Source: Anaerolineae bacterium
GTDB lineage: Bacteria > Chloroflexota > Anaerolineae > B4-G1
Length of the DNA stretch: 64,000 bases
Direction of reading: 5' to 3'
NCBI GenBank assembly: GCA_034430835.1
Contig: DAOUDX010000220.1
Span: 344-64,343 of the forward strand
A program made the position numbers and the translations under genes. How positions within the stretch are numbered: the stretch's first letter is position 1; the number at the start of each line of letters is the position of its first letter. The notes below the pieces were generated by a model. The model saw only the letters and a program-made list of their open reading frames with translations. It was not told where the DNA came from and did not search any database. Positions 12,680 to 55,299 of the stretch are shown piece after piece.

Positions 12680-14653
12680 CTAATTCCATGTTCCCAAAGT
12701 TCGACAATAGCGCGCCCCGGATTCAACATTCACTGCTCCTCGCAAGAAGGGCGTGAGGGTTCGCCTAGGGTTGCCTGGGGCACTTCCACTGTGTCTCTGC
12801 CGCGCTATTCGCCTGTTGCAGTATGTGATATACAGTTGGTGCTTGGCTCTTGTGAGAGACACGTAGAGCAATCGTCTCTCGTCATCAAGAGCCTCTCCTC
12901 TGGCATCACCCGGAATGAGTTGCTCCTCGGCAGCGACAATGATGACAGCTTTTGCAGAAAGCCCTTTAGCCCTGTGCATCGTCAAGATGTTGATCTTTTC
13001 CGACTCCAACTCTTGGTCAAGAGTGTCTTCGGGGCTTGTAAGGGCTTGTACTAGTTGATCGAGCGTAGCAGCGTTGAAGCGCTCTGCCACTCGTTCAATA
13101 TGGATGAGGACTGAGCGTCGATCCTCTTGAGAAGGGATCACGATCCCTGCAAGGTCAGACAGCCGCCCGAAGAGCTCTCCCCGTATTCTAGCGCGTTCAA
13201 CATCATCCTCGAGATCAAGAGGCTCGGAAGGGCTCAAGTCAGCAAGCATATCTCTGAGTTCGCGAATCGCAGAAACCTCCCGCTGTGCGAGTCTGCCACG
13301 GGGTATAGTCTCCGGGTCATCCTCAATGCATCGGAGCGCCTGATGGAATCGTAGTCCACTCTTGACAGCATAATCATAGATCGCCGCTATTGTCTTGGAT
13401 CCGATCTGATTCTTCCTGCCAACGGATTGGAGCAAGGTACGCCACGCTAGATCATCATGAGGGTTGAGTGCAAGCCGCATGAGACTCAGCACGTAGCGGC
13501 CCGGTGCTTCGTCCATCGGGCCGCCCCTCTCTGACCGAACGTTGACGTCCATACCCCTACTACATAGCGCTGCCTTGAGAACCGATGAGTATCTTTCTTG
13601 GTGATCGCTTCGAAGCAATATCAGAATATCGTCAGGATCGTATTGCTCAACATCGATAAGATATCTGCAGATAGATGCAACTCCTCTTGCTTCCTCATGC
13701 TGATCGCCAAAGCGAAGCAGATGTACCTCGCCGTCGCCGGCGCCCGCGCAAGGATTCAGCGGTTTCTCAATTCGGTTGTGGTCCAAGTTGGCAACGTACT
13801 GACCTACTGCAACTATGGATCGATCGCATCGCCAGCATGTATCGAGTTCCAGTGAGACAGAGGGATGATACTCATCCAGGAAGCGGCGAATTCCTGCCGG
13901 ATGGGCACGACGAAAGCCATATATGCTTTGGTCATCGTCACCAGCGCAGAACACTTCTGCACCAAGGTCTGCTAGGATTCGGACGATTGCCAAATCGCAT
14001 TTGTTGAGGTCTTGATACTCGTCAACGAGTAGATGCTGAATGTCGCCTTCCAGGTCGAACTCATCGGGGTTCTCCTCCACAGCATGCTTGAGCTGCCAGA
14101 CAAGTTCAGAACGGAGAGTATATCCGTAGATCTCCCGATGCTGACTCCAAGCGCCCATGAAGTTGGGATCAGCGGGCTGATAGCCTGAGTTTTCCACTGC
14201 CAGACTCTGCCAATCACTTGATAATTCCGCGAATTTCTCTCGGATTTCCCTGTCACGAAGGCTCAACATCTGAGCAATATCGGCCCGGATGATGAACTTC
14301 TCCTCGAAGTCATCAGCTATTCTCAAAGGCTGCGGCAGGGAGGTTATCAGCCTAGAGTTCCGGAGGAGTTGCCGAAGAGCAAAGGAATGCAGCGTGCTGA
14401 CTCGAGGTGTGGACAGACTGTGTTGTGATAGCTCGTCGGCGACGCTTCTGCGGAGATCGTAGGCATTTACTCTGGTGAAGGCAACTGCAAGGATCGAATC
14501 CGGCGGGACCCCATCCTCAGTCACCAACTTTGCTACACGTCGGGTAAGAGTCAGAGTCTTCCCCGTACCTGGCCCCGCTAGGAGTCGCGCATGCATTCCT
14601 GTATGTCCGGCAGCCTCAAGCTGTCTTCCACGAAGTTCATCGTCCCATGCCAT
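12680..14653 (-). CDS. UvrD/Rep/PcrA-type superfamily 1 DNA helicase, orphan, in a low-GC patch
   Basis: 657-aa ORF. Walker A LLAGPGTGKTLT, motif II LLVDEYQDLN, MHRAKGLSAKAVII, and motif VI-like RRLLYVSLTRAKHQLYITY. Sampled lines are about 45-53% GC, against mid-60s in the flanking genes. Confidence 0.9.
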   Translation of the reverse strand: MAWDDELRGRQLEAAGHTGMHARLLAGPGTGKTLTLTRRVAKLVTEDGVPPDSILAVAFTRVNAYDLRRSVADELSQHSLSTPRVSTLHSFALRQLLRNSRLITSLPQPLRIADDFEEKFIIRADIAQMLSLRDREIREKFAELSSDWQSLAVENSGYQPADPNFMGAWSQHREIYGYTLRSELVWQLKHAVEENPDEFDLEGDIQHLLVDEYQDLNKCDLAIVRILADLGAEVFCAGDDDQSIYGFRRAHPAGIRRFLDEYHPSVSLELDTCWRCDRSIVAVGQYVANLDHNRIEKPLNPCAGAGDGEVHLLRFGDQHEEARGVASICRYLIDVEQYDPDDILILLRSDHQERYSSVLKAALCSRGMDVNVRSERGGPMDEAPGRYVLSLMRLALNPHDDLAWRTLLQSVGRKNQIGSKTIAAIYDYAVKSGLRFHQALRCIEDDPETIPRGRLAQREVSAIRELRDMLADLSPSEPLDLEDDVERARIRGELFGRLSDLAGIVIPSQEDRRSVLIHIERVAERFNAATLDQLVQALTSPEDTLDQELESEKINILTMHRAKGLSAKAVIIVAAEEQLIPGDARGEALDDERRLLYVSLTRAKHQLYITYCNRRIARQRHSGSAPGNPRRTLTPFLRGAVNVESGARYCRTLGTWN

Positions 14654-16744: not shown

Positions 16745-19161
16745 CGTATCTCGACCTCCGGCAGCCAGATGCGGTCAATCGCTGCCCCGTCCGGTGTTTG
16801 CACTGGCCAGCGCGCCATCGTATCGCGCGAGTAAATGCCCAATTGGAGGCGGTACCGACCAGGAGCGGCGTCGGGCGGGATGGGAACCCGCACGTGCTGC
16901 ACGATCACATCGCCCACTTCCAGCCCACTTATGGCCGATCCCCATCCATCGCGCTGCGCGATAGGCTGCCCCTCTGCGTCGATCAGGTGCACAAAGCTCG
17001 CGATGGGCGGCCTCAGCTCGCCGTCGATCTGCCACGCCAGGGTGAGCGACACCTCCCCGCCGGGAGATACGCTGTCCCGCTCCAGCCGATAACCGAGCAG
17101 CTCAATGCGCCCGTCGAACGATACCGGCGCTTCCAGTGGCTTTCCCTCCGGCGTCCAGACCTCGGATTCAGCCGACCACTGTTCCAGCATGAGCGCAACC
17201 GCGTCCCGTGCGTCGAACTCCAGCGCCCCCTGCTCGTCGCGCTGCGCGTGTTGCAGCACCGCATCCCGCAGGTCCGGCACGTAGGGCAGCGGATCGGGCA
17301 CGAGGTAGCGCGCCGGGCCGTTCATGGCAAAGACGAAGGAATCGCCGTCCGGCACCCACTTGGCGATCAAACGCTGCCCCTCCTGCCATCCCAGTTGCTC
17401 CGACTCCACGTCGGCGACGCGCGAACCCTGCACCAGCGCCCGGACGACGGGGGTGGATGGTGCGTACTCTACGTGATACAGGTCAATGGAGTAGCCCGCC
17501 CGATCCTCGGGAGTGAGCGAGTGGAAGTAGGCGTACAAATCGGGGTGCGTGAGCACCAACCCCTGCCGCAGACTGGTGCGGCTGATGGCGTACCAGCCCG
17601 GATCGGGCGTGTACGGATTGAAGGCCATCGATTCGGCATCCCCCACGAAGCGGAGGAAGCCCGGGGCCGGCCAGTAATGAATCCCGTATGCACCTGGGAC
17701 AGCCGTGCCAAAGTAGCCCAGGTGAACGAAGGGCAGGCCGCGTTTCTCCATGAGCGCTTTCAGCGCCGGTAGATCCTGTCCCCAGTCGAGGTTAGAGTCC
17801 ACGAGGTAGCGGTCACCGTTTTCGGGGCCGCCGGCGAGTTCGTTGAAGAACGAAAGATGGTGGGGGTAGATCGTCGCCGCATCGATCACCAGCCAGATGA
17901 GCAGCAGTCCCACGATGGACGCCGGGACGATGTCTCGGCGGCGGTGCGGTGGCCAGCGAGTGATCGTTGCGACCTGCCCTGCCAGTCCGAACATGAACGG
18001 CAGGATCGGCAGCAGGTATCGGTGTCCAAGCTGGAGCGCGCTGGCCAGCGTCGCGGCGCTGAACACGACTATCGGGAGCGCGAGGGGGAGCGCTACCCGG
18101 AAGGCGCGCTTCTTGATCACAACGATCACTGCCGCAGCAGTCAGAATCAATGTGGGTAGTGGCGTCTTGAGAAGGAACGCCAGCGGATAGTAGAACCACA
18201 CGCCGTTGGGCCACACCTGGCCCAGCGCGTACACCGGCTGGCCGTAAGCGATGCGGTCGCTCTGGAAAAAGATGCCCTTCCAGAAAGACGGTGCTGGTAG
18301 GCCATCTTCTGTGGAGAACCCGTAGACGGCCCAGATAGTCAACACGCAGACGGCGGCCACACCCGCCAGCCCGCCAGCCCGGAGCCGGATGGCCTTGCGC
18401 CAGCCGTCGGCCGGGCGGTGGGCCAGGGTGAGGAGCAGCACGATGGGGCCGATGACGAGGCCGCTGTACTTGCTGGTGCAGGCGAAGCCGACCATCACAC
18501 CAGCGAGAATCAGGCGAGGGATTGAGGGGCGCTCCAGCCATTCCCACCAAGCCCACGTGGCGAAGAAAAGCATCGCGGCCACGCCGAGATCGTTGGTACT
18601 CAGACCGGCGTTGGCGACGATGCCGGGGTCAAACACGTACAGAGCCAGGGCCAGAAATCCAGCGGCCCGTCCCGAAAGCTTGCTCGTCCAACGGAAGAGC
18701 GCCGCGCCGAGCAGCAGCGCCAGCGCGACGTTGGGCAGCCGCGCCACCCCGAGCAGGCGCAGGGCCTGGTCCGCATTGGCCTGCCAAACGAAAACGTCGC
18801 CGAAGGAGCCGCGCTCTGCCTGCTGCCATGCGGCGCTGTCGAGCGGCAGGTGCAGGTCGAACATCAGCAGCGGGATCGCCACCCAAACGTCGATCAGCGG
18901 CGGATGATGGTTACTGAGGCGCGCGTCGCCGGTGCGCAAATAGGTGTAACCAGCGCTTAATTGGTACAGTTCATCGAAGGTAGCCGAGTGGGTAGCGACG
19001 CTTCCCAGTGCCTGCAAAGTCAGCAGGAAGAGCAACGCCGAAACCAATGCCAGTGCTCGCCAAGGGCTGCGAACAGGAAATGAGGGCCTATGACCGGCGC
19101 GGGCAGTTGCCTCTTGCCCTTTATCATAGGCCCCCTCAGAGTTCTCTTCAGAGCTAGGCAT
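16741..19161 (-). CDS. GT-C fold membrane glycosyltransferase (GT39/ArnT-like) with C-terminal beta-rich module
   Basis: ORF track 16741-19206 (GTG). ATG at 19161 (MPSSEENSEG...) is the alternative used here. First-loop motif HSATFDELYQLSAGYTYLRTGD...HHPPL. C-terminus IELLGYRLERDSVSPGGEVSLTLAW...SFVHLIDAEGQPIAQRDGW...PPDAAPGRYRLQLGIY. Confidence 0.8.
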   Translation of the reverse strand: MPSSEENSEGAYDKGQEATARAGHRPSFPVRSPWRALALVSALLFLLTLQALGSVATHSATFDELYQLSAGYTYLRTGDARLSNHHPPLIDVWVAIPLLMFDLHLPLDSAAWQQAERGSFGDVFVWQANADQALRLLGVARLPNVALALLLGAALFRWTSKLSGRAAGFLALALYVFDPGIVANAGLSTNDLGVAAMLFFATWAWWEWLERPSIPRLILAGVMVGFACTSKYSGLVIGPIVLLLTLAHRPADGWRKAIRLRAGGLAGVAAVCVLTIWAVYGFSTEDGLPAPSFWKGIFFQSDRIAYGQPVYALGQVWPNGVWFYYPLAFLLKTPLPTLILTAAAVIVVIKKRAFRVALPLALPIVVFSAATLASALQLGHRYLLPILPFMFGLAGQVATITRWPPHRRRDIVPASIVGLLLIWLVIDAATIYPHHLSFFNELAGGPENGDRYLVDSNLDWGQDLPALKALMEKRGLPFVHLGYFGTAVPGAYGIHYWPAPGFLRFVGDAESMAFNPYTPDPGWYAISRTSLRQGLVLTHPDLYAYFHSLTPEDRAGYSIDLYHVEYAPSTPVVRALVQGSRVADVESEQLGWQEGQRLIAKWVPDGDSFVFAMNGPARYLVPDPLPYVPDLRDAVLQHAQRDEQGALEFDARDAVALMLEQWSAESEVWTPEGKPLEAPVSFDGRIELLGYRLERDSVSPGGEVSLTLAWQIDGELRPPIASFVHLIDAEGQPIAQRDGWGSAISGLEVGDVIVQHVRVPIPPDAAPGRYRLQLGIYSRDTMARWPVQTPDGAAIDRIWLPEVEIR

Positions 19162-19193
19162 CACAAGAGCGCAGGAACGAGACCGATCAATGC

Positions 19194-20987
19194 TTACGGT
19201 GTGCACTCCACATTGGGTGTGACCTTGAAATAGTTAACGCGAAAGTCCATAGGCGTTATCTCGTAGACGCCGGCCAGAAAGCCGACTCTTGTCATATTGC
19301 TCAGGCCAGGCATCGTCACCGACCCAGAGAGCTTGGACTTGCCATTGATGTACATTGACGTGACCTTATTCCCATCTACGCTGACCTGCAGCCTGCTCCA
19401 GTTGTTGAGATTGAGGTCCGGATCCGGGCCAGAACTTCCGGCGAAATTTTGGGCACCGGAGAAGGCATTGGTCTTGGGGAATACATAGTTGGACTTGTAG
19501 CGCAACCCCCAGCTATTGTCAAAAGACATGCCCAACATATAGAGCTGTGTATTCGCCTCGTTTGCGCCAATGATCAGCGCCGCGTTATCCCACCACCCAC
19601 TGGCCTCGTATCTGACGGAAGCTTCTACACAGTACTTATTAGGGGGCTGATAGGGCGCCAGCGCATCCGGCTGGATGAACCACATGAACGGGCCACCTGA
19701 GTCCACATAGATGCGGTACTGACCTCCGGTGTAGCCCCGTTTCCAGTAATGGCCTCCATACCCATCGGTGTATACCAACCCCTGATCAGCCGGCCATCCA
19801 CTCGCCGAGCAGGAAAAGTCATCGTAATAGCCATTGGAGGACGACGCGATGTTGCTCCAGGCAGGTCCTTGCCCCCAAGGACCATCGGCGCGCACGCGAT
19901 AGTACCATGTCTGAGGCGCCGAGCCTTTGTCAAAGACCTTGTAAGGTTCTGTCGTTGTATAGGTTTGTAGACCACACCCAAAATTGGAGGACGTAGCCTC
20001 CTGAAGCACATACTCCACGGGCGGTGAAACGTACATCCAGGAAGCAGTGTAAACACCGTTGACGGGAGCCAAGACGGTCAGCGTGAGAATGGGAGGATAG
20101 TTATTGAACACGATGGGCAGAAAGTACTCCATATCCGTTCTCACCGACGCCGCCACGGAATCCGATACCGGAAGTCCCACACCTGCGACGTTGACCGTGT
20201 TGGTAAAGACCGTGCCTTCGCTCAACGTGGAGCTGACGTCAGCAGTGAAGGTAATAGTGACCCCTGCCGCGTAATCCAAGCGGCCGGTACACGTGATGGT
20301 GTCCCCTGCCTCACCACAACTCACATCTGTCCCACCGTCGGCATTCAAGCTACCAGCATAGCTGACCTCTGGCGGTAGGCTATCAGTAACCGAAAACGGA
20401 TCAACAGCGCCGTAGCCAGTGTTGTTTATGTAAATGGCGTAAGCCACCTGTTCGTCAGGGCGAACCGAGGAAGGGTTGACCGTCTTCAGGACTTCCAATT
20501 GCCCAGGAGAAACCACCGTCGAAACCGTCGAGGTAATCAGCTTGCCGGAGCCGGTGAACTCGGCAGTGTTGACGACTGTGGCAGAGCCGAGATCAGGAGA
20601 TATCTGAACAGTGAAAGTGATAAGAGCTTTTGTACCCCAGGCAAACGAATCACATGTCCAGGTTATCACACCGTCCGCGTAGCCAGCAGCACCTGCCCCA
20701 ATCGAAACCAGGCTGTCGGACATATAGTCCACCTCAGGCGGAAGCGTATCCGTTATCTGGGCATCGATAGTATCGAGTGTGGTGTTTTCCACAAAGATAG
20801 TGTAAGTCAACGTTTCGCCAGGCGCTGCCTGGCTTATATTGACCTGCTTATCCACCGTCGGGTCTGCCGTCGGCTCGGCACGCGCTTGGAGCGTCAGCGA
20901 CAAGACTGCTAAAAGCATCAGTGCCAAGACACTTGCCACCACCGTTAGCACTGTGGGATTTGTATGGGTTTTCTCGCAAGTTTCCAC
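19194..20987 (-). CDS. secreted multidomain protein: two DUF11-type repeats, an FN3-like segment and a C-terminal lectin/LamG-like jelly-roll
   Basis: ORF track 19194-21044, but its TTG start lies inside the promoter spacer. GTG at 20987 has GAAAGAGG 7 nt upstream and gives METCEKTHTNPTVLTVVASVLALMLLAVLSLTLQARA|EP, a signal peptide. DUF11-like ...APGETLTYTIFVENT...TDTLPPEVDY... occurs twice. ...YYRVRADGPWG... looks FN3-like. The C-terminus is ...NWSRLQVSVDGNKVTSMYINGKS... Sampled GC is about 47-50%. Confidence 0.75.
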   Translation of the reverse strand: METCEKTHTNPTVLTVVASVLALMLLAVLSLTLQARAEPTADPTVDKQVNISQAAPGETLTYTIFVENTTLDTIDAQITDTLPPEVDYMSDSLVSIGAGAAGYADGVITWTCDSFAWGTKALITFTVQISPDLGSATVVNTAEFTGSGKLITSTVSTVVSPGQLEVLKTVNPSSVRPDEQVAYAIYINNTGYGAVDPFSVTDSLPPEVSYAGSLNADGGTDVSCGEAGDTITCTGRLDYAAGVTITFTADVSSTLSEGTVFTNTVNVAGVGLPVSDSVAASVRTDMEYFLPIVFNNYPPILTLTVLAPVNGVYTASWMYVSPPVEYVLQEATSSNFGCGLQTYTTTEPYKVFDKGSAPQTWYYRVRADGPWGQGPAWSNIASSSNGYYDDFSCSASGWPADQGLVYTDGYGGHYWKRGYTGGQYRIYVDSGGPFMWFIQPDALAPYQPPNKYCVEASVRYEASGWWDNAALIIGANEANTQLYMLGMSFDNSWGLRYKSNYVFPKTNAFSGAQNFAGSSGPDPDLNLNNWSRLQVSVDGNKVTSMYINGKSKLSGSVTMPGLSNMTRVGFLAGVYEITPMDFRVNYFKVTPNVECTP

Positions 20988-21025
20988 TTTAACACCTCTT
21001 TCACTGCCTTTGGGGGAGCAGCGGG

Positions 21026-21054
21026 ATTGTACCACCTGCTGCAAACACTGTCAA
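21026..21054 (-). promoter_or_regulatory. near-consensus sigma70-type promoter for the DUF11 gene
   Basis: The minus strand reads TTGACA (21054-21049), a 17-nt spacer ending in TGg, then TACAAT (21031-21026). It lies about 39 nt upstream of the GTG start. Confidence 0.6.
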
Positions 21055-44141: not shown

Positions 44142-45683
44142 CTAGCCCGTGTCTTCGGTCAGCTCGGTCAGGCGACGGATCAGCGGCTGGAGCGTGGGGA
44201 ACAGCGGGCGGTAGACCTCGCTGTAGATGTGGTCATAGATCGCCCGTGTTTCCGGGTCGGGCGCGAAACGCTCCGTCGTGTCGGTCATCGCATCGGCAGC
44301 GGCGGCTGTATTGGGGTACCACTGCGCTGCAACCGCGGCGAGGATGCCCGCCCCCAGGCAGGTCGCCTCGGTCGTGGCGGCGCGCACGACGGGCACGCCC
44401 GTGACGTCGGCCACGATCTGGCACCACAGGTCGCTGCGGCTGCCGCCGCCCAGGGCAACGTACTCTCCGAACGGCCGGCCCGTCGTCGTGGCCATCGCCG
44501 TGGCCATCCCCTCGCCCAGCAGCCGTTGCTCGAAAGCGATGCCCTCCAGGATAGCGCGGTAGAAATGCTCTGGTCCGTGCGCGCCCGTCCACCCGATGGT
44601 GATGCCGGAGGCTGCCGGGTCCCAGTAGGGCGTCATCGCGTGATTCCAGTACGGCACGACCACGAGACCCAGAGAGCCGGGCGGTACCTGGGCTGCGGCG
44701 GCTTCCAGCGCGTCCTCGAGGGCGCTCAGGCCAGAGTTATGCGGATTCCCTCCGAATGCCTTCACGAACCAGTTCACCGTGAATGCCCCTCCCTGAATCA
44801 CAGTCTCCAGAAAGTACTTGCCCGCGATAGGCGCGTAGAGGGTGCGGAAGGCCCGGCGTGTGAGATAGCCGTCGTGGACGATACCGCTGACTACGGCGGT
44901 GCCCAGGTTGAGGGACGCGCGATCGCCGCCGACGGCGCTGGCACCCAGGCCAGCGCACTGGCCGTCGCCTGCTCCCGCGATGACGCATAGCCCGGACGGC
45001 AGACCGGTTGCGGCCGCGGCCTCGTCGCTCACACAGCCGATGGGTTGTCCCGGCGGTATCAGTTCGGGGAACTGCTCAGGACGCAGGCCCAACTCCTCCA
45101 TCAGGTCAGCAGCCCAACACCCGGATGCCATATCGACCAATCCCATCGGATCGGCGGAGGCCAGGCTGGACCTAAATGCGCCCGTCAGCCGGTGGACGAG
45201 GAAGGCGTGGGCGTCCAGGAACTTGGTCGTCTGCGCTACCATCCCCGGCTCGTGCTGCATCAGCCAGACGATCTTGGTCACGGAGGGATTGGTGGTGAGC
45301 GGCTTGCCGGTGATCCGGTGAAAGTGCTCCCCGCCGATCCGTTTCTCCAGGAAGGCGACCTGGTCACGGCTGCGCTCGTCGAGCCACAGGATGGCGTTGC
45401 GCAGGGGCCGGCCTGCGCTACCCACCGGCACAAAGCTCTCGCGCTGGTGGGTGATGCAGAGCGCATCCACCCGGCTTGCATCGATTTGACCGAGCAGCGC
45501 CCGCAGTGCGGCGCACGCGCCATCCCACCACGCCTCTGCGTCCTGCTCGTACCAGTTGGGCTTGGGCTGGAGAAGGGAATAGGTCGCCCGGCCCTCGGCC
45601 GCGGCCCGCCCTTCCCGATCCCAGGCGATGGCCTTGCAGGCGGTGGTGCTGGAGTCGATGCCGATGACGAGGGGAGCGGCCAT
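44142..45683 (-). CDS. FGGY-family carbohydrate kinase (xylulokinase-like)
   Basis: ORF track 44142-45719. ATG at 45683 (MAAPLVIGIDSSTTACKAIAWD...) shares one base with the upstream TGA (TGATG). ...GAGDGQCAGLG... and ...ALGGGSRSDLWCQIVADV... are FGGY signatures. Confidence 0.85.
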   Translation of the reverse strand: MAAPLVIGIDSSTTACKAIAWDREGRAAAEGRATYSLLQPKPNWYEQDAEAWWDGACAALRALLGQIDASRVDALCITHQRESFVPVGSAGRPLRNAILWLDERSRDQVAFLEKRIGGEHFHRITGKPLTTNPSVTKIVWLMQHEPGMVAQTTKFLDAHAFLVHRLTGAFRSSLASADPMGLVDMASGCWAADLMEELGLRPEQFPELIPPGQPIGCVSDEAAAATGLPSGLCVIAGAGDGQCAGLGASAVGGDRASLNLGTAVVSGIVHDGYLTRRAFRTLYAPIAGKYFLETVIQGGAFTVNWFVKAFGGNPHNSGLSALEDALEAAAAQVPPGSLGLVVVPYWNHAMTPYWDPAASGITIGWTGAHGPEHFYRAILEGIAFEQRLLGEGMATAMATTTGRPFGEYVALGGGSRSDLWCQIVADVTGVPVVRAATTEATCLGAGILAAVAAQWYPNTAAAADAMTDTTERFAPDPETRAIYDHIYSEVYRPLFPTLQPLIRRLTELTEDTG

Positions 45684-48499
45684 CAGACCTCGGAGGTCTC
45701 TGCCAGCGTGCGGATCCACGGGCGCATCAGGGGGACGGCCAGGCGAAGAACGTCGCCTTCTTCGACGACAAGGTCGTGGCGTAGTACATCTTTGATAGCC
45801 TCTTCGGCCCTTTCGGGACCCAGACCCGTTTCTTGGACCAGCTCTGTACGAGAGAGAGACGCATCATCCTCGCGACTCGCAAGAATCTTCAACAGTCGAT
45901 GCTCGTCCGGCCCGGCCTCGCTCCACACGCCGCTGAAGTAGTAATCGGCCTGGAGGAAGAGCTCGTGGTAGAAATCGGGGGTGAGCAGCGCCTCCAGGTC
46001 GGCGGGGGTGAGGGTGCGCGGGGTCTTCTCCCCCTCTTTCAGGAAGCGCTCGTTCCAGCGGTTGACCAGCTCCCAACACAGCCGCTGCAGGAGGTAGGGC
46101 TGGCCGTGGGTGAGGCGATACAACTCCTCGGCCAGCGCGAGCTCGTACTCCAGCGCAAAATCGTCCGAGGGCTGGCGAACGAGGTGCAGCGCGGCCTCCC
46201 GCGCGAGGAAGGAGACGCGCACCGGCTCGGCGCTGCCGTAAAAGACGGCCTTGTAGTGGCGCAGCTCATCCTCCAGCGCCTGCCGCCCGGCAAAGAGCAG
46301 CCCCAACCAGCGGTGCCTCTGGGCGGCGCTGCGCAGGTAGCGCAGGAAGGCCGGGTCGAACTCGCCCCTCTCGAGTTTTTCCTCGGCGATCTCGTACTCG
46401 TCGATGGCCAGGGTGAGGCGCCGCCCGGTCATGTGCGGATCCAGCCGCTCCAACAGCGCGTTGAGCGCCATCCGGGCCGCGCCGGTGCTCGTGTAGTCGT
46501 CCGCGCCCGGCGCGGGGCCGGCGGTGAGGCCCGCCTCCTGCGCAGCGGCGTGGATCGCGCGGGCAAAGCCGTGCAGCAGTTGGCCGGTGTGGTCGGCCAT
46601 CACCAGATCCTGCATATCGGTGCGGGCGATGAGCGTCTCCGGCCCCCGGTGGCGGTAGAGGTGGTGGATGATGGAGGTCTTGCCCATCCTGCGGTGACCG
46701 TAGAGGATGATGGGCGGGAGCGGGGCGTCAGGAGAGGCGGCCCACAGCCGCTCCAGTTGGGCCAGGGTGGTTTCGCGGCCCACGAAGGTGCGCTCGACCG
46801 GCAGGCCGCTGTAGCCCTCGTAGGGGTTCTCGACCGGCTGGCGCAGCACCTGCTCGCCGATCTGCCCGCCGGCACGGGCCAGCACGTCGCGCCATTGCTC
46901 GGCGATCTGCCTGACGATGGCGCGCTCCGGCTCGGGGCAGGTCTCGTCCACGTCGGCCAGCAATTGGGTGAGCGCGGCGACGGCGCGCCCGATGGCCGAG
47001 GAGCGCATCAGGGGGGAGGCGGCGTGCACGGCCACGTCCGCCTCCTGGGCGACCTCGCGCAGGCGGCGCAGGGTGGCTACGACGGCGGGGCGCAGGTAGG
47101 GTTCAGGCAATTCGGGCAGAGAGGCCCCGCCAGGACAGCGGTACTCCATCCAGCGGCCCACGGCGGCGGGGTCCTGGGCCTCCAGCGCCGCCACCAGCGC
47201 AGAAGCGATGAGGCACAGCTCCTCACCGCCGGGCAGCGCGCGTACGACGGCGAAGGCCTCCGTCGCTTTCACCGGCTGCTGCACATGCAGGTACCAGAAC
47301 CCAGCGCAGGCCGCGCGGGCGGGGATGTCCAAACGTAATTCTGGCCTGACTCGTTTGAAGAGTTGACGAAAGAAAAAAAACGGAATGATGAGACCAGCAG
47401 TTGCGTAGTACCGTATTCCCTTGTGCAGCGAGGCAGAGCCGAAGTGTACCAGGTTCCAGTCGAATGGCTCGCAGGCCAGTTCGCCCACGGCGGCCAGAAG
47501 TCGCTCCTCCGGCACCTGAGCCAGCGCGGCGTTGACTGCCCGCACAACCGGGACGAATTGCAGGGTGTAAGCCAACAGTTGGTTGGCGTTTTGGACGCCA
47601 GCGGCCCAATCCCGCGCCAGCCGGTTCTCCAGTCTCTTCTGCATACCCGGCAGGGCCAGCCAGGTAACGCGACCTGCTCCCTCCCGAAGCCAGCCCCAGG
47701 TGCTGGGGAGCGCCAAGATGGCATAATCTAGTGTCCGTAGAGCCATTACTATGCCCACGACGCCGCCCGCCACGCCGAGCATCACGCCATCCACCACATC
47801 GCTCGCCATGCCGACCGCCACGCCGCCCATTACGTTGAGTACCACGCCGCCTGCCACGCCGACTGCCACGCCACTCACTACTCTGAGCGTCACGCCGCCC
47901 GTCACGCCGAACGCCACGCCGAGCGCCACGCCGAGCGCCACGCCGAGCGCGATGCACATCACCCCTAGCGCAAAGCTGGGCTCTGCACTGGTCGACATGC
48001 TGAATACCACGGCGGATACTGCACTATATGTCACGCTAAGCGCTACACTACTCGCCACGCCGCTTGCTCTACTTCCTGCTACACTTCTTAGAACGCCGAC
48101 CTCTAAGCTGAACACTATGCCTAACATTGTGACTACTATGTGAGGCCAATTGATGTGCTCGTTTAGCATCCACAGGGAGACAGACGCCGCCAGAGGCATC
48201 AAAGCAACCAAGAGCAAGCCTTGGAAGGCCAGGTCTCGCTGCACCCGATCCTGGCGCAGCGCGGGCAGCAGGTCGCGGCCCGTGGCTTCGCGGTGTTCGG
48301 GATCGGCAAAGGTCTCCACGTACCAGCGCAACGCCTGGGGGAAGAAGAAGCACCAATAGAGCAGGCGCAGGTAGTCGAGCGGGTTCCACAGTTGCAGCGG
48401 GCGCTTGAGCTTGGGGGCCAAGTCGAGGCGGGGGACGGACATCTCCCCCTCCCCCGGCCCCTCCCCCAAGGGGTGAGGGGAGGCTTTTCTCGCGCTCAT
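45683..48499 (-). CDS. membrane-anchored P-loop NTPase (AAA+/STAND-like, Arch_ATPase flavour) with N-terminal glycine-zipper repeat region and C-terminal winged-helix-like domain
   Basis: 938-aa ORF; an alternative ATG at 48442 gives 919 aa. Residues ~95-255 are hydrophobic with a (G/S)-V-x-x repeat. FVGRETTLAQLERLW...ILYGHRRMGKTSI is the Walker A (46676-46699), and LTLAIDEYE is the Walker B. The C-terminus ...EHRLLKILASREDDASLSRTELVQETGLGPERAEEAIKDVLRHDLV... looks wHTH-like. Confidence 0.75.
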   Translation of the reverse strand: MSARKASPHPLGEGPGEGEMSVPRLDLAPKLKRPLQLWNPLDYLRLLYWCFFFPQALRWYVETFADPEHREATGRDLLPALRQDRVQRDLAFQGLLLVALMPLAASVSLWMLNEHINWPHIVVTMLGIVFSLEVGVLRSVAGSRASGVASSVALSVTYSAVSAVVFSMSTSAEPSFALGVMCIALGVALGVALGVAFGVTGGVTLRVVSGVAVGVAGGVVLNVMGGVAVGMASDVVDGVMLGVAGGVVGIVMALRTLDYAILALPSTWGWLREGAGRVTWLALPGMQKRLENRLARDWAAGVQNANQLLAYTLQFVPVVRAVNAALAQVPEERLLAAVGELACEPFDWNLVHFGSASLHKGIRYYATAGLIIPFFFFRQLFKRVRPELRLDIPARAACAGFWYLHVQQPVKATEAFAVVRALPGGEELCLIASALVAALEAQDPAAVGRWMEYRCPGGASLPELPEPYLRPAVVATLRRLREVAQEADVAVHAASPLMRSSAIGRAVAALTQLLADVDETCPEPERAIVRQIAEQWRDVLARAGGQIGEQVLRQPVENPYEGYSGLPVERTFVGRETTLAQLERLWAASPDAPLPPIILYGHRRMGKTSIIHHLYRHRGPETLIARTDMQDLVMADHTGQLLHGFARAIHAAAQEAGLTAGPAPGADDYTSTGAARMALNALLERLDPHMTGRRLTLAIDEYEIAEEKLERGEFDPAFLRYLRSAAQRHRWLGLLFAGRQALEDELRHYKAVFYGSAEPVRVSFLAREAALHLVRQPSDDFALEYELALAEELYRLTHGQPYLLQRLCWELVNRWNERFLKEGEKTPRTLTPADLEALLTPDFYHELFLQADYYFSGVWSEAGPDEHRLLKILASREDDASLSRTELVQETGLGPERAEEAIKDVLRHDLVVEEGDVLRLAVPLMRPWIRTLAETSEV
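47741..48100 (-). repeat. 12-nt-periodic coding repeat encoding about 30 consecutive (G/S/A)-V-x-x tetrads
   Basis: The protein reads GVLR SVAG ... GVAS SVAL SVTY ... GVAL GVAL GVAF GVTG GVTL RVVS GVAV GVAG GVVL NVMG GVAV GMAS DVVD GVML GVAG GVVG IVMA. The DNA shows GCCACGCCGAGC x3 and many GCCACGCC-type units. Confidence 0.8.
48444..48483. repeat. C/G-rich imperfect hairpin element at the junction of the two NTPase genes
   Basis: tccccctcccccggCCCCTCCCCcaaGGGGtGAGGGGagg. It translates as SPHPLGEGPGEGE if the 48499 start is used. It resembles the G/C-run repeat in yfhO. Confidence 0.6.
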
Positions 48500-49746
48500 C
48501 CCAGTGCCTCCATATCCAGGTCGTAGCAGGCGCGCCAGTCGTAGGCCGGGTTGTGCAGCGCCTCATGGCGGTGGTGGGCGGCGCGCTGCAGGCGGTAGGG
48601 GTGGCAGGCAGAAAGGGCGAGTAGCTCGTCGCAGGTAGGTGTATCGAAGTGCAGCGCGTCGGGCACCCAGGGGTGGGCCAGCAAGCGCCGGGCTTCGTCC
48701 TCCGTGAAAGGGCCGAGCCGTTGGACGCTGAGAAAGTCGTAGGGCCAGGAGCCTTTGCCGGGGTCGGGAAAGATGTCTTTGGGCAGGTCCCGGCTCGCCG
48801 TCACCAGCCGCAATCCGCGCTCGGCCTGGCACAGCGCCCGGCAGCCGCGCAGGTGGTCGAGGTCGAAGCCGCGCTCGGGGGCCAGGTCGAACTCGTCCAG
48901 CAGCAGCACGGCCCGGCGGCCGTGGACGGCGCGCTTCAGATCCTCCCTGGTCTTGCCGTCTCCGCCCAGTTGGCGGATCGCTTCGGCCAGCAGCCCGCGG
49001 GCGTCCTCGAAATCGTAAAAGTCCCAAAAGACCACGGCCTGGCCCGGCTCCTGGCGCAGCCGATCGGCCAAGCAGTGCAGGAGCGAGGACTTGCCGATCT
49101 TGCGCTCCCCCACCAGCGCGACGGAGCCGCCCGCAAGCATGCGCAGCAGTCGCTCCAGCATGCGCTCGCGCCCGACGAAGCGGGCCGGGTCGCGGATGGC
49201 GACGACGTCGGTGAAGGGGTTGGGCGGAGGAGCGGAGGGGCAGGAGGGCGGAGGAGCAGGCAGGTCTTTGAAGCGGTGCGCCCAATCGGCGTAGTGTTTG
49301 AGCAGGAGGTCATTGTTGGCCGGATGGGAGAGTTGGCCGCACAGATCTTCCCAGAAGATGACGTGAACGGAGAACTTGCCAGCCGCCAGCCGCTCCTCGT
49401 CAATCTGGCGGACAATCTGTTGCAGTTTGCTGTCCCGGCGGTCGGTGGTGGCGATGGTGTACTCGGCCAGGGGCGGGGAGAAGCGCTCGGCTTTGGCGAT
49501 CTCGGCTTCTATCTTCTTGCGCGTGAGGCGGCCCTCGTCGTAGCGCTTGCACTGGACGCCCGCGTAGCGGCCTTGCAGATGCGCGGGGCGGCCATAGATG
49601 TCCACCCCCTGCTGCTCCTGGCCGCTACGGCCATAGCGCTGTGTTTGAGGGTCGTCCCAGGTACGGGTGTAGAGGTCGGCGACGATGTCCTCGAATTCGT
49701 TCCAGGATTCAGGTTTGGGCAGTTCGCTTTGGGGAACGGTAGGCAT
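48496..49746 (-). CDS. Mrr-like (PD-(D/E)xK) nuclease domain fused to a P-loop NTPase (AAA+/STAND-like, Arch_ATPase flavour)
   Basis: 416-aa ORF. N-terminus WNEFEDIVADLYTR...GQEQQGVDIYG...YAGVQCKRYDEG fits the Mrr_cat pattern with D49 and Q65-x-K67. A Pro-rich linker follows. FVGRERMLERLLRMLAGGSVALVGERKIGKSSLL is the Walker A (49087-49110), and VLLLDEFD is the Walker B. There is no sensor-repeat region. ATGA overlap with the next gene. Confidence 0.75.
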   Translation of the reverse strand: MPTVPQSELPKPESWNEFEDIVADLYTRTWDDPQTQRYGRSGQEQQGVDIYGRPAHLQGRYAGVQCKRYDEGRLTRKKIEAEIAKAERFSPPLAEYTIATTDRRDSKLQQIVRQIDEERLAAGKFSVHVIFWEDLCGQLSHPANNDLLLKHYADWAHRFKDLPAPPPSCPSAPPPNPFTDVVAIRDPARFVGRERMLERLLRMLAGGSVALVGERKIGKSSLLHCLADRLRQEPGQAVVFWDFYDFEDARGLLAEAIRQLGGDGKTREDLKRAVHGRRAVLLLDEFDLAPERGFDLDHLRGCRALCQAERGLRLVTASRDLPKDIFPDPGKGSWPYDFLSVQRLGPFTEDEARRLLAHPWVPDALHFDTPTCDELLALSACHPYRLQRAAHHRHEALHNPAYDWRACYDLDMEALG

Positions 49747-49788
49747 TTTGAAGGCCTTTTGCCTGCCACTTGCAGAGTGACAGGCAAC

Positions 49789-50067
49789 TCAACCCAGTTT
49801 GTTGATCCGCCCGTATGCGTTGTCGTGCTGGGCGATATCGTCAACGACGATACGCTGATTGGCCGCGTCCAGCAGGTAGGGGATACGGAACGGTCCGCTG
49901 TGCAGGCTGAAGAAATGGCTACCCTTGATGGGCTGATGCGTAATCTCGTCGGCATGCTCGGCCAGCCACTGAATCTTGCGGATGATGGCTTGGGTTGCTT
50001 TGAGGTTCCTGCGAGCCAGTTTGCGCAGTGCGGCCTGAGCCTTCGGCGTGAATTCGTAGCGATACAT
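49789..50067 (-). CDS. type II toxin-antitoxin system toxin, RelE/ParE family
   Basis: 92-aa ORF. MYRYEFTPKAQAALRKLARRN...IIRKIQWLAEH...GPFRIPYLLDAANQRIVVDDIAQHDNAY fits the RelE/ParE pattern. Its start shares one base with the upstream stop (TAATG). Confidence 0.75.
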   Translation of the reverse strand: MYRYEFTPKAQAALRKLARRNLKATQAIIRKIQWLAEHADEITHQPIKGSHFFSLHSGPFRIPYLLDAANQRIVVDDIAQHDNAYGRINKLG

Positions 50068-50342
50068 TACATGTCCCGGAATTCTTGTACCGCCTCTTCG
50101 CCGTTAACCAGTTCTACCTCCCCCTTCTGGATGGCCTCGTAGTCTTCCTGCAACTCAGCCAGATAGGTAGGGGTAGCCTCCTCTGCTGTGTACAGCACTT
50201 TGACGCCATGCTCGTTTACATAGTAGTCGTGAAGCTCTTCGCGCACCACACGCCGCACGACCGTGGTGATGAGTGTCTCCAGTTGGCCTGCGGTCAGTTG
50301 AACGACCGGCTGATCTGGCAATATGTTTGCGTTCTCGCTCAC
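50067..50342 (-). CDS. putative antitoxin (family not recognised)
   Basis: 91-aa acidic ORF immediately upstream of, and coupled to, the RelE/ParE gene. GTG start with GGAGG 6 nt upstream. Confidence 0.55.
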   Translation of the reverse strand: MSENANILPDQPVVQLTAGQLETLITTVVRRVVREELHDYYVNEHGVKVLYTAEEATPTYLAELQEDYEAIQKGEVELVNGEEAVQEFRDM

Positions 50343-54716: not shown

Positions 54717-55220
54717 CTACCACCCCTCCAAATACCTGGACCAGGTTCCGTTGCCGTCCTTGTAGCGCCCGTAGAGGTACTCTGCTGAGGGGCGCGGCTC
54801 GTGGGGTTGGCGCAACAACTTCATGTGAGCCTCCACCAGTGTGCGCCCGCCCTTGCGCCGGTTGCACTGCGGACAGGCAGCCACCAGGTTCTCCCAGGAG
54901 TGTTCACCGCCCCGATGACGTGGCACGATGTGATCGAGCGTCAGTTGGCTCGTCTCTCGGCCACAATACTGGCAGCGGTGATTATCGCGGCGCAGGATCT
55001 CGCGCTTGCACAGCCGCACGCGAGGGCGTGGGCTACGCACGACGTAGAACAGGCGGATGACGGACGGGCGCTCGTAGTTGCGGGAGATCGTGCGGATGAT
55101 GCCTCGTCCGTTCTCCAGCGCCATGGCCTTGTCCGCCAGGATCAACCCCATGGCCCGCCTGGTGGTGCAGACGTTGATCGGCTCGTAATTGCCGTTGAGT
55201 ACGAGTACGGGCTCGTTCAT
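54717..55220 (-). CDS. HNH endonuclease-domain protein
   Basis: ORF track 54717-55286. ATG at 55220 (MNEPVLVLNGNYEPINV...). ...RDNHRCQYCGRETSQLTLDHIVPRHRGGEHSWENLVAACPQCNRRKG is a complete HNH/zinc motif. Confidence 0.85.
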   Translation of the reverse strand: MNEPVLVLNGNYEPINVCTTRRAMGLILADKAMALENGRGIIRTISRNYERPSVIRLFYVVRSPRPRVRLCKREILRRDNHRCQYCGRETSQLTLDHIVPRHRGGEHSWENLVAACPQCNRRKGGRTLVEAHMKLLRQPHEPRPSAEYLYGRYKDGNGTWSRYLEGW

Positions 55221-55299
55221 CAGTGAACCATCCTCGGATGACGCTGCGACGACGCTCCGATGAGTCCGGCGGGAAGTATAGCACACCTAGCCTGAGTCG

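Follow-up and report, generated by a model that had tools for sequence, protein, structure and literature searches.

A 64,000-nucleotide stretch of DNA from an Anaerolineae bacterium (assembly GCA_034430835.1, contig DAOUDX010000220.1, positions 344 to 64,343 of the forward strand), referred to below as the window, carries two adjacent minus-strand genes that both encode P-loop NTPases. The data showed that these genes, gene 1 and gene 2, form a genuine and widespread module of two genes that is apparently uncharacterised, in which the product of gene 1 (A) is the variable partner and the product of gene 2 (B) is the constant partner. On balance, we favour the reading that A and B make up a split STAND-like conflict or cell-death switch from the nSTAND1/ATPase_2 ('MNS') neighbourhood, which would work by forming a hetero-oligomer. 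The two genes and their parts are located as follows:

48496..49746, minus strand: gene 1 (A), 416 amino acids (aa), an Mrr-type head, a Pro-rich linker and a short NTPase (open reading frame (ORF), Pfam, AlphaFold2 (AF2) model and Foldseek)
49267..49746, minus strand: Mrr / PD-(D/E)xK nuclease head, residues 1 to ~160 (invariant residues in 25 relatives)
48499..49221, minus strand: gene 1 NTPase module, residues 176-416 (motif conservation counts and paralogy to the gene 2 NTPase)
45683..48499, minus strand: gene 2 (B), 938 aa, membrane-embedded NTPase (ORF, full-length homologues and AF2 model)
48236..48442, minus strand: conserved cytoplasmic N-terminal motif of gene 2, residues ~20-88 (invariant positions in 27 sequences)
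47705..48235, minus strand: glycine-zipper transmembrane region of gene 2, residues ~89-265 (hydropathy, charges and low-confidence AF2 helices)
47760..47950, no strand assigned: 12-nt tandem repeat, 15.9 copies with 67% matches (Tandem Repeats Finder)
46865..47662, minus strand: all-helical domain of gene 2, residues ~280-545 (AF2 pLDDT mostly 80-95 and strongly conserved columns)
45686..46837, minus strand: NTPase, lid, extra helices and winged helix of gene 2, residues ~555-938 (Pfam, Foldseek and invariant motifs)

The original prediction, which was made from the sequence alone, had described two minus-strand genes overlapping by ATGA, and the ORF listing agreed with it exactly: the 4-nt overlap lies at 48496-48499. 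An alternative start of gene 2 at M20 would give a protein of 919 aa and coincides with the start of most homologues. The start at M1 is plausible because the N-terminal extension and the 4-nt overlap are both retained in the closest homologue. The homologue matches of gene 2 reached down to E = 0 across the full length, and those of gene 1 ranged from E = 5.8e-289 to 1e-36. These very strong scores indicate that both genes are genuine and are not ORF artefacts of high-GC DNA.

The distribution of gene 2 was determined by a pattern and tblastn scan of one genome per GTDB species, which gave at least 525 loci. Among the best 80 of these loci, the hosts were filamentous Cyanobacteria (Nostoc, Microcoleus, Scytonema, Calothrix, Oscillatoria, Symploca and others), Chloroflexota (Anaerolineae, Thermoflexus, Caldilinea), Acidobacteriota/Aminicenantes and Methanothrix. 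Anabaena strains also carry homologues. The full-length identity of B was 35-80% across Chloroflexota, filamentous Cyanobacteria, Acidobacteriota and Methanothrix, and the closest relatives of the window copy came from Anaerolineae metagenome-assembled genomes. When the N-terminal 555 residues of gene 2 were searched against 1.84 billion representative sequences, 393 clusters at 50% identity were found. The complete members were about 900 aa long, so that the N-terminal region of gene 2 was seen in one architecture only.

That the two genes occur as a pair across genomes had been left as a point to check, and it was found in both directions. The forward sample comprised the 69 loci in which gene 2 was complete and was preceded by 1.3 kb or more of sequence. 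A gene 1-type NTPase ORF on the same strand ended at the start of gene 2 in 48 of the 69 loci, frequently with a 4-nt overlap. The partner was somewhat further upstream in 18 more loci, and a profile search detected a truncated partner in locus L037, which brings the loci with A upstream of B in the same orientation to 67 of 69. The reverse search, which used a trimmed alignment of gene 1-type NTPases, gave 17 loci with an A-type NTPase of at least 35% identity, and the N-terminal region of B was directly downstream in 15; one of the remaining two loci had no room downstream, which leaves 15 of 16 loci with enough sequence. Single-locus look-ups gave TIR+B (L001), SIR2+B (L091) and Mrr+B (L098). 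A and B were shown to be a unit with near-obligate co-occurrence, fixed order and translational coupling.

A third component between A and B was considered and rejected. The small Nostocales ORFs found there were translations of repeats or of sequences resembling miniature inverted-repeat transposable elements (MITEs), or an unrelated DUF433-like gene, and the intervening 'ORF' of L037 was actually the truncated partner. Repeat- or MITE-like insertions of 300-700 bp were present between A and B in L019, L026, L027, L029, L036, L040, L059, L069 and L071, and these Nostocales insertions yield spurious ORFs with motifs such as 'KGAGGLG' and 'LGLKSQA.SESPLKWT'.

The original prediction had assigned an Mrr/PD-(D/E)xK N-terminus to gene 1, and Pfam supported this assignment. 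Residues 14-114 matched Mrr_cat (26.6 bits, cut-off 21) and Mrr_cat_2 (24 bits, cut-off 22), both above the Pfam cut-offs. Conservation of the nuclease residues, on which the assignment also depended, was found in an alignment of 25 Mrr-bearing relatives, in which E19, D49, Q65, C66, K67 and R68 were invariant. The catalytic candidates are E19, D49, Q65 and K67, and the D...(E/Q)xK pattern is satisfied. Residues 185-377 gave Pfam matches to AAA_22 (above the cut-off), AAA_16 and nSTAND1 (PF20703), the last with 23.6 bits, which is below the gathering threshold of 27.1. The motifs of the gene 1 NTPase were NPF, FVGRE, GERKIGKS (Walker A, G213-K219-S220), LLLDEFD (Walker B, D284-E285), R303 and the lid motif HP(Y/F). 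The AlphaFold model of gene 1 (pLDDT 90) showed an alpha/beta nuclease-like head, a disordered Pro-rich linker and a five-stranded P-loop core. The modelled chain ended after a four-helix lid (lid helices 349-415), without a winged helix and without a sensor, in accordance with the earlier statement that nothing follows the NTPase. The best Foldseek match of gene 1 in the PDB was Avs4 (8dgf, E = 1.8e-9, 416 aligned columns), which agrees with the effector-plus-NTPase logic of Avs that had been proposed for the pair. Searched against PDB sequences, the profile of the gene 1 family matched nothing beyond generic Cdc6, ABC-F and Clp entries.

The layout that had been read from gene 2, with a glycine-zipper region, a helical region, an NTPase and a tail like a winged helix-turn-helix (wHTH), was seen again in the hydropathy profile and the AF2 model. 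The N-terminal motif of gene 2 is VPRLDLAPKLKRPL..NPLDYLRLLYW.FFFPQALRWY, and L25, P29, L31, L35, D42, Y43, W49, F53, Q55, A56, W59 and Y60 were invariant in 27 sequences. Hydrophobic glycine-zipper segments follow at residues 89-265. From the charge distribution we infer about six helices with both ends cytoplasmic, and in the predicted topology R138, R144, R206 and R255 would be inside and E114, E173, D234 and D237 outside. The 12-nt repeat at 47760-47950 encodes GVAx glycine-zipper units. The sequence of the zipper region varies among gene 2 homologues and its length differs greatly, and these large length differences suggest repeat slippage.

In the AF2 model, the helical domain of gene 2 covered residues ~286-543, the NTPase ~570-800 and the winged helix ~884-936, the last being composed of helices 884-907, strands 911-920 and helix 925-936. 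The helical domain is a candidate sensor or adaptor; it had no match in Pfam and none among PDB sequences. The motifs of the gene 2 NTPase were NPY, FVGRE, GHRRMGKT (K607), LAIDEYE (D700-E701), R723 and GQPY, with a Walker A span of G601..G606-K607-T608. Among 27 gene 2 homologues, GHRRMGK(T/S), D700-E701 and R723 were invariant, and G799-Q800-P801 of the lid was also invariant. Pfam gave AAA_16 above the cut-off, a weak ATPase_2 match and an nSTAND1 match of 24.3 bits (cut-off 27.1). Foldseek placed 2qen and 2fna (SSO1545) at the top for the NTPase/winged-helix part, followed by ORC/Cdc6, and the gene 2 profile had no match among PDB sequences.

The two NTPases had been described as paralogous, and the comparison of the two proteins upheld this. 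BLASTP aligned the gene 1 and gene 2 NTPases at 27% identity (E = 4e-9), and hhalign aligned gene 1 residues 172-415 with gene 2 residues 554-822 at a probability of 99.2% (E = 2e-19), in an alignment reaching from NP(F/Y) through Walker A, Walker B and the lid. In the A family (n = 67), the P-loop motifs were conserved in 63-66 proteins and the Walker A lysine in 63; D284 and R303 were nearly invariant, and the proline of the lid H-P383 was present in 65. In the B family (n = 27), Walker A, the D-E of Walker B and R723 were all invariant. An arginine was thus invariant, or nearly so, in both families (R303 in A, R723 in B).

We also compared the N-terminal heads of A with the NTPase cores that carry them. 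The NTPase of window gene 1 was 90% identical to that of the homologue P0003, 78% identical to that of a TIR/EAD7-headed protein, 73% to that of a caspase-headed protein and 67.5% to that of a trypsin-headed protein. However, the window Mrr head was merely 27-34% identical to the heads of the closest full-length homologues, such as P0003, and was 70-85% identical to heads on unrelated C-termini, including that of an NB-ARC+TPR protein. The gene of this NB-ARC+TPR protein is flanked on both sides by MmeI-like restriction-modification genes. A-type NTPases at 67-90% identity carried Mrr (two subtypes), TIR+EAD7, caspase or trypsin heads, and CHAT, SIR2 and HNH heads were found on more distant ones. 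The head types were counted in 67 partners from the GTDB genome scan, which were mostly cyanobacterial. About 32 of these 67 had a LuxR-like or XRE-like helix-turn-helix (HTH) head and 11 a CHAT head; TIR heads were present in 4-5, trypsin heads in 3, caspase heads in 2-3 and a helical head of ~320 aa with no family assigned in 3, while the HNH head and the Mrr head of the window were each seen in 1. In L099, which is syntenic with the window, the head is deleted (4847-5270), and 13 Mrr-type-A codons are left upstream of a 270-aa head-less NTPase. Judged from its sequence, the L099 partner is a natural 'disarmed' variant.

These comparisons show, at the level of sequence, that gene 2 is constant and that gene 1 is a cassette carrier with exchanged heads. 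The claim of the original prediction that the pair has two different effector-type N-termini is probably wrong, since exchange affects the head of gene 1 alone, and the membrane and helical part of gene 2 is constant; on this basis, gene 2 looks more like a sensor, anchor or scaffold than a second weapon. The enzymatic heads of A are standard effectors of Avs, CBASS and Thoeris-like systems, which gives the pair a conflict-type flavour. Because about half of the systems are HTH-headed, the pair looks like a switch with exchangeable outputs and not purely like an abortive-infection weapon. The ~320-aa helical heads, which belong to L074, L076 and L078, gave a weak match to the Rx_N domain of plant CC-NLR proteins (E = 0.009); if this match is real, they would be heads of a coiled-coil, membrane-targeting type.

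Two independent weapons, with A as a self-sufficient nuclease-NTPase and B as a pore-forming abortive-infection protein that is only a co-regulated paralogue of A, are an improbable explanation of the same features. A has neither a sensor nor a winged helix, the parts that regulate every characterised STAND protein, although its Walker A and B motifs are intact, as are those of B, which would suit two self-sufficient proteins. GxxxG and glycine-zipper arrays are known pore and channel motifs, and the variable zipper length with its slippage-prone 12-nt repeat would also fit a pore-forming B. However, if B were a complete sensor plus effector, the retention of A with changing heads would be unexplained, and the term 'second weapon' is inapplicable to the HTH-headed systems. 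The near-obligate co-occurrence, the fixed order and the translational coupling of the two genes also argue against independent action.

In the split switch that we favour, B would be held in the cytoplasmic membrane by about six zipper helices, and its N-terminal motif, helical domain, NTPase and winged helix would be cytoplasmic. B would act as sensor, anchor or scaffold, and motor, with a fully competent NTPase, and A would be an output head on a paralogous NTPase core, without a sensor or a winged helix. STAND/AAA+ switches activate their N-terminal effectors by proximity, through nucleotide-dependent oligomerisation. In the A/B pair, a trigger would be perceived by B, ATP binding and then oligomerisation of B would follow, A would be recruited through its paralogous NTPase into a hetero-oligomer, and the A heads would thereby be brought together and activated. 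For the window copy, the predicted Mrr nuclease would cleave DNA and cause growth arrest or death, either as abortive infection or as programmed death within a filament. The hetero-oligomerisation, the triggering signal, the target of the nuclease and the role in the cell, whether immunity or cell death, are all parts that we infer. As a speculation, the conservation of B across phyla makes a membrane-associated, conserved or host-derived signal likelier than a variable phage protein.

A more specific version of this switch can be put forward only tentatively. The pair could be a prokaryotic 'paired NLR', in which the membrane-embedded B would sense something that happens at the membrane, for example the entry of a phage genome, damage by holins or pores, or depolarisation, and would nucleate the ATP-dependent co-assembly of the sensor-less A; the exchangeable head of A would then carry out the response, leading to immunity or cell death. 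In NAIP-NLRC4 and in plant sensor/helper NLR pairs, one chain senses and nucleates and the other brings the effector, and a system of filamentous bacteria and archaea might parallel them. The parallel is a mechanistic analogy only, as there is no sequence relationship beyond the STAND/AAA+ fold and the sensors of those pairs are soluble LRR proteins. STAND/NLR-like switches are normally one chain; here, effector plus switch and putative sensor plus switch are on two paralogues, and the putative sensor chain is membrane-integral. If the hetero-assembly is true, the pair would be a simple bacterial model for sensor/helper NLR cooperation and would point to membrane-level detection of infection or damage, and the known conflict systems of multicellular prokaryotes would grow by a family of at least 525 loci. 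With NTPase cores that are nearly identical and heads that are swapped, the pair is also a natural system in which to study effector exchange.

Several observations weigh against the split conflict switch that we favour. The second Walker B acid was N (D-N, not D-E) in 27 of the 67 A proteins, so that the requirement of A for ATP hydrolysis is not uniform, and the zipper region of gene 2 could itself be a pore-forming effector. The neighbours of the pair in the window are housekeeping genes, encoding a TRAM-domain RNA methyltransferase, a nitroreductase, MGMT and a HAD hydrolase. In related loci, the Pfam families seen most often among the 131 neighbours were those of Opp permeases and PhoD, and about 10 of the 131 matched defence models. 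The system was not found on IMG/VR viral contigs, and PLSDB plasmids gave one irrelevant weak match. Its position in Nostocales appears to be stable and chromosomal, which is less typical of mobile defence islands. The HTH heads on about half of the sampled A proteins fit general signalling equally well.

These observations bear on another possible, though less probable, reading, in which the pair is a non-immune, membrane-linked signalling switch. B would then monitor the state of the envelope or membrane, or a developmental cue, in filamentous organisms, and the output of A would be transcriptional through its HTH in many cyanobacteria, and elsewhere proteolytic, NAD-consuming or nucleolytic for regulated or developmental cell death or remodelling, in the manner of STAND regulators of the MalT/AfsR type. 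The HTH heads of ~32 of 67 A proteins favour such a switch, and the marked conservation of B from one phylum to another suggests that the signal is conserved and self-derived. The chromosomal and largely housekeeping location with apparent Nostocales synteny, and the failure to find the system on viral contigs or plasmids, point in the same direction. However, the rapid exchange of enzymatic heads on nearly identical NTPase cores is a hallmark of conflict systems, and the window head is common to the NB-ARC+TPR protein encoded between restriction-modification genes. The HTH heads do not decide for signalling either, since they are also found on nSTAND1 proteins that Kaur et al. hold to be conflict systems.

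A defence function of the A/B pair is plausible. The earlier description of the pair as a candidate defence module holds as far as it concerns a conserved pair with effector heads, but it is weakened by the HTH heads of about half of the systems and by the mostly housekeeping context. The search for defence islands had the same mixed outcome. The minority of neighbours of defence type in related loci comprised CHAT, TIR, HNH, Septu, ThsB-like, PD-Lambda-2 and Cas-associated nuclease genes.

The pair was compared with known systems. PADLOC gave no named system for it; the nuclease domain of gene 1 matched LmuA, and the matches to PDC-S01/S27 were sub-significant. NCBIfam gave nothing meaningful for gene 1 or gene 2, and a literature search of limited extent found no paper or curated model describing the A/B pair. 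The statement of the original prediction that the pair belongs to no named system therefore stands for PADLOC, NCBIfam and the literature, but the logic is not wholly undescribed, as an nSTAND2 operon provides a precedent (see below).

In a 2004 definition ascribed to Leipe et al., a STAND protein is said to have a P-loop core, a lid of the GxP type, a winged helix and a C-terminal sensor or repeats. A P-loop core with Walker A/B and a helical lid was found in both proteins of the pair. The winged helix was present in the gene 2 model and was absent from gene 1, which ends after the lid. A C-terminal sensor or repeat domain (TPR, WD40, LRR, FGS) was found in neither protein by Pfam or in the AF2 models, in line with the earlier remark that the pair has no long sensor repeats; gene 2 has an N-terminal membrane and helical region instead.

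The pair resembles nSTAND1 in the N-terminal strand motif, Walker A/B and the lid pattern, and 61 of 67 A-type partners matched PF20703 at E < 1e-3. Several cyanobacterial orthologous partners were above the PF20703 threshold (27.3-44.9 bits) and the window proteins below it, which places the window pair as peripheral or sister to nSTAND1. Further likenesses to nSTAND1 are the N-terminal TIR, caspase, trypsin and LuxR-HTH heads and the bias to multicellular prokaryotes. The nSTAND1 proteins described so far are single chains with a C-terminal FGS or beta-propeller sensor, often after a transmembrane segment (PMC8195603). In contrast, the lid is the last part of the head-bearing chain in the present pair, and the membrane/helical region belongs to a second chain, which is paralogous to the first.

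A two-gene operon of nSTAND2 has been predicted to be a counter-invader system, in which '??+STAND+wHTH' is followed by 'nSTAND2+wHTH+TPR+HEPN/GT4', and a toroidal hetero-multimer was predicted for it (Kaur et al. 2021, PMC8195603). It shares with the A/B pair the adjacent paralogous STAND-type NTPases, of which one is constant (unknown N-terminus, STAND and wHTH) and the other is fused to effectors, and a conserved arginine is present in both, with the hetero-multimer predicted for the nSTAND2 case. However, the effector partner of the nSTAND2 operon has eroded NTP-binding motifs and C-terminal effectors after wHTH and TPR and is encoded by the downstream gene, whereas that of the window keeps Walker A/B, has an N-terminal head, is without wHTH and TPR and is encoded by the upstream gene. 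The constant partner described here is also a multi-pass membrane protein, unlike that of the nSTAND2 operon. The window proteins had no match to Pfam nSTAND2 (PF20702) at E <= 0.1, and distant gene 1 relatives in L117, L124, L135 and L139 did match PF20702.

Related distant pairs were seen in L117, L118, L124, L133, L135, L139 and L144, where an nSTAND2-type NTPase adjoins a gene 2-like NTPase of 745-1291 aa. The nSTAND2-type member is often fused to a Ser/Thr protein kinase, and the long gene 2-like NTPases are without the membrane region. The long protein of L117 has Reg_prop and CarboxypepD_reg at the N-terminus, and that of L118 has PEGA at the C-terminus; the additional domains in the other loci had no family assignment. 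The hosts of these distant pairs were Chloroflexota, Eisenbacteria, Blastocatellia, Methanoperedens and Methanosarcina. The NTPase pairing therefore appears to be older and wider than the membrane subfamily.

With Avs4 the pair shares an Mrr-like nuclease N-terminal to a STAND NTPase and the logic of exchangeable effectors. Avs proteins are single chains activated by oligomerisation, and their large C-terminal TPR-like sensors wrap around phage proteins. Gene 1, unlike Avs, is without a sensor and a winged helix, the architecture is split over two genes, and PADLOC gave no Avs match. The archaeal ATPase_2 (PF01637) proteins SSO1545/PABY2304 were the best structural match of the C-terminal half of gene 2 (2qen, TM-score 0.67 on target); these are stand-alone proteins of ~350 aa, without a membrane/helical N-terminus and without an effector partner. 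The membrane-associated two-gene EACC1 system (System 4 of Kaur et al. 2020) was considered and rejected because its architecture differs. In that system, the 5' gene encodes a single-transmembrane EACC1 domain, and the 3' gene encodes a constant caspase with variable C-terminal domains (Kaur et al. 2020), whereas here the 5' gene encodes effector plus NTPase and the 3' gene encodes the multi-transmembrane NTPase.

As far as its main text goes, a survey of 589 STAND clades (Nature 2026) clusters only C-terminal sensors of at least 400 aa; that main text has no two-gene or operon arrangement, and the word 'transmembrane' occurs in it once, in a figure legend. A non-exhaustive term search of the nSTAND1/nSTAND2 source tables of Kaur et al. 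2021 gave no pair with the transmembrane-helical-NTPase-wHTH architecture.

The genes and elements directly flanking the pair are:

49789..50067, minus strand: ParE-family toxin (Pfam ParE_toxin 29.3 bits, cut-off 23)
50067..50342, minus strand: candidate antitoxin, 91 aa, 1-nt overlap with ParE (ORF, sequence and promoter scan)
44142..45683, minus strand: FGGY-family sugar kinase, xylulokinase-like (Pfam and NCBIfam)
49761..49785, minus strand: stable hairpin of 12 bp in the spacer between ParE and gene 1 (minimum free energy and z-score)

The details given earlier for these neighbours were all verified: 42 nt separate ParE from gene 1, the promoter scan found the only sigma-70-like site of the region upstream of the antitoxin (50391-50363), and the stop of gene 2 is coupled to the start of the FGGY kinase in a TGATG junction. 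The ParE_toxin domain and the small overlapping gene upstream agree with a type II ParE/antitoxin module, and the candidate antitoxin had no family match in Pfam or NCBIfam. The hairpin in the 42-nt spacer had a minimum free energy of -24.3 kcal/mol and a z-score of -2.87 (calculated over 49740-49800). It is without a U-tract and is therefore not a classical terminator; it may have a part in processing, stability or attenuation.

The original prediction had also allowed for all four genes as one transcription unit. A functional four-gene module, in which ParE/antitoxin controls the expression of the NTPase pair or triggers it, is very unlikely. The lone sigma-70-like site upstream of the antitoxin, with ParE and then the 42-nt spacer following, would agree with such a module, but the stable hairpin stands between the toxin-antitoxin genes and gene 1, and no homologue of ParE, the antitoxin or the FGGY kinase was found in 89 related loci. 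In L099, copies of ParE (77% identical) and of the antitoxin (75% identical) precede the system, and the downstream genes differ. Shared synteny accounts for the toxin-antitoxin genes of L099, as the upstream TRAM methyltransferase is also the same. In L098, the closest relative, the coupled kinase is kept and no ParE/antitoxin match is present on the contig; the coupling of kinase and gene 2 was seen in L098 alone and not in the other loci examined. ParE/antitoxin and the FGGY kinase were accordingly rejected as conserved parts, being syntenic in very close relatives only, and by this distribution they are lineage-specific neighbours and not parts of the system.

Elsewhere in the window, a UvrD/REP-type helicase gene (12680-14653, minus strand) lies in a GC trough of 0.53-0.58 (about 0.65 around it), between genes for a PMT_2 glycosyltransferase and a YfhO-like membrane protein, and it may be a horizontally acquired insert. 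In L091, too, a UvrD-like helicase is encoded upstream of the system with the SIR2 head. At 19000-21000 of the window, GC falls a second time (to 0.54-0.55), in a stretch that contains a gene with DUF11 repeats of cell-surface type (ORF 19194-21044, minus strand). A run of paralogous membrane glycosyltransferase-like genes (PMT_2/GT39-type, YfhO) extends over ~10200-31560 on the minus strand and includes at least six ORFs of 675-836 aa, an unusual local expansion. At ~54717-55286 (minus strand; 4527-5030 of L092), a small stand-alone HNH endonuclease gene adjoins DUF1385, an annotation taken only from precomputed Pfam matches on the identical contig L092.

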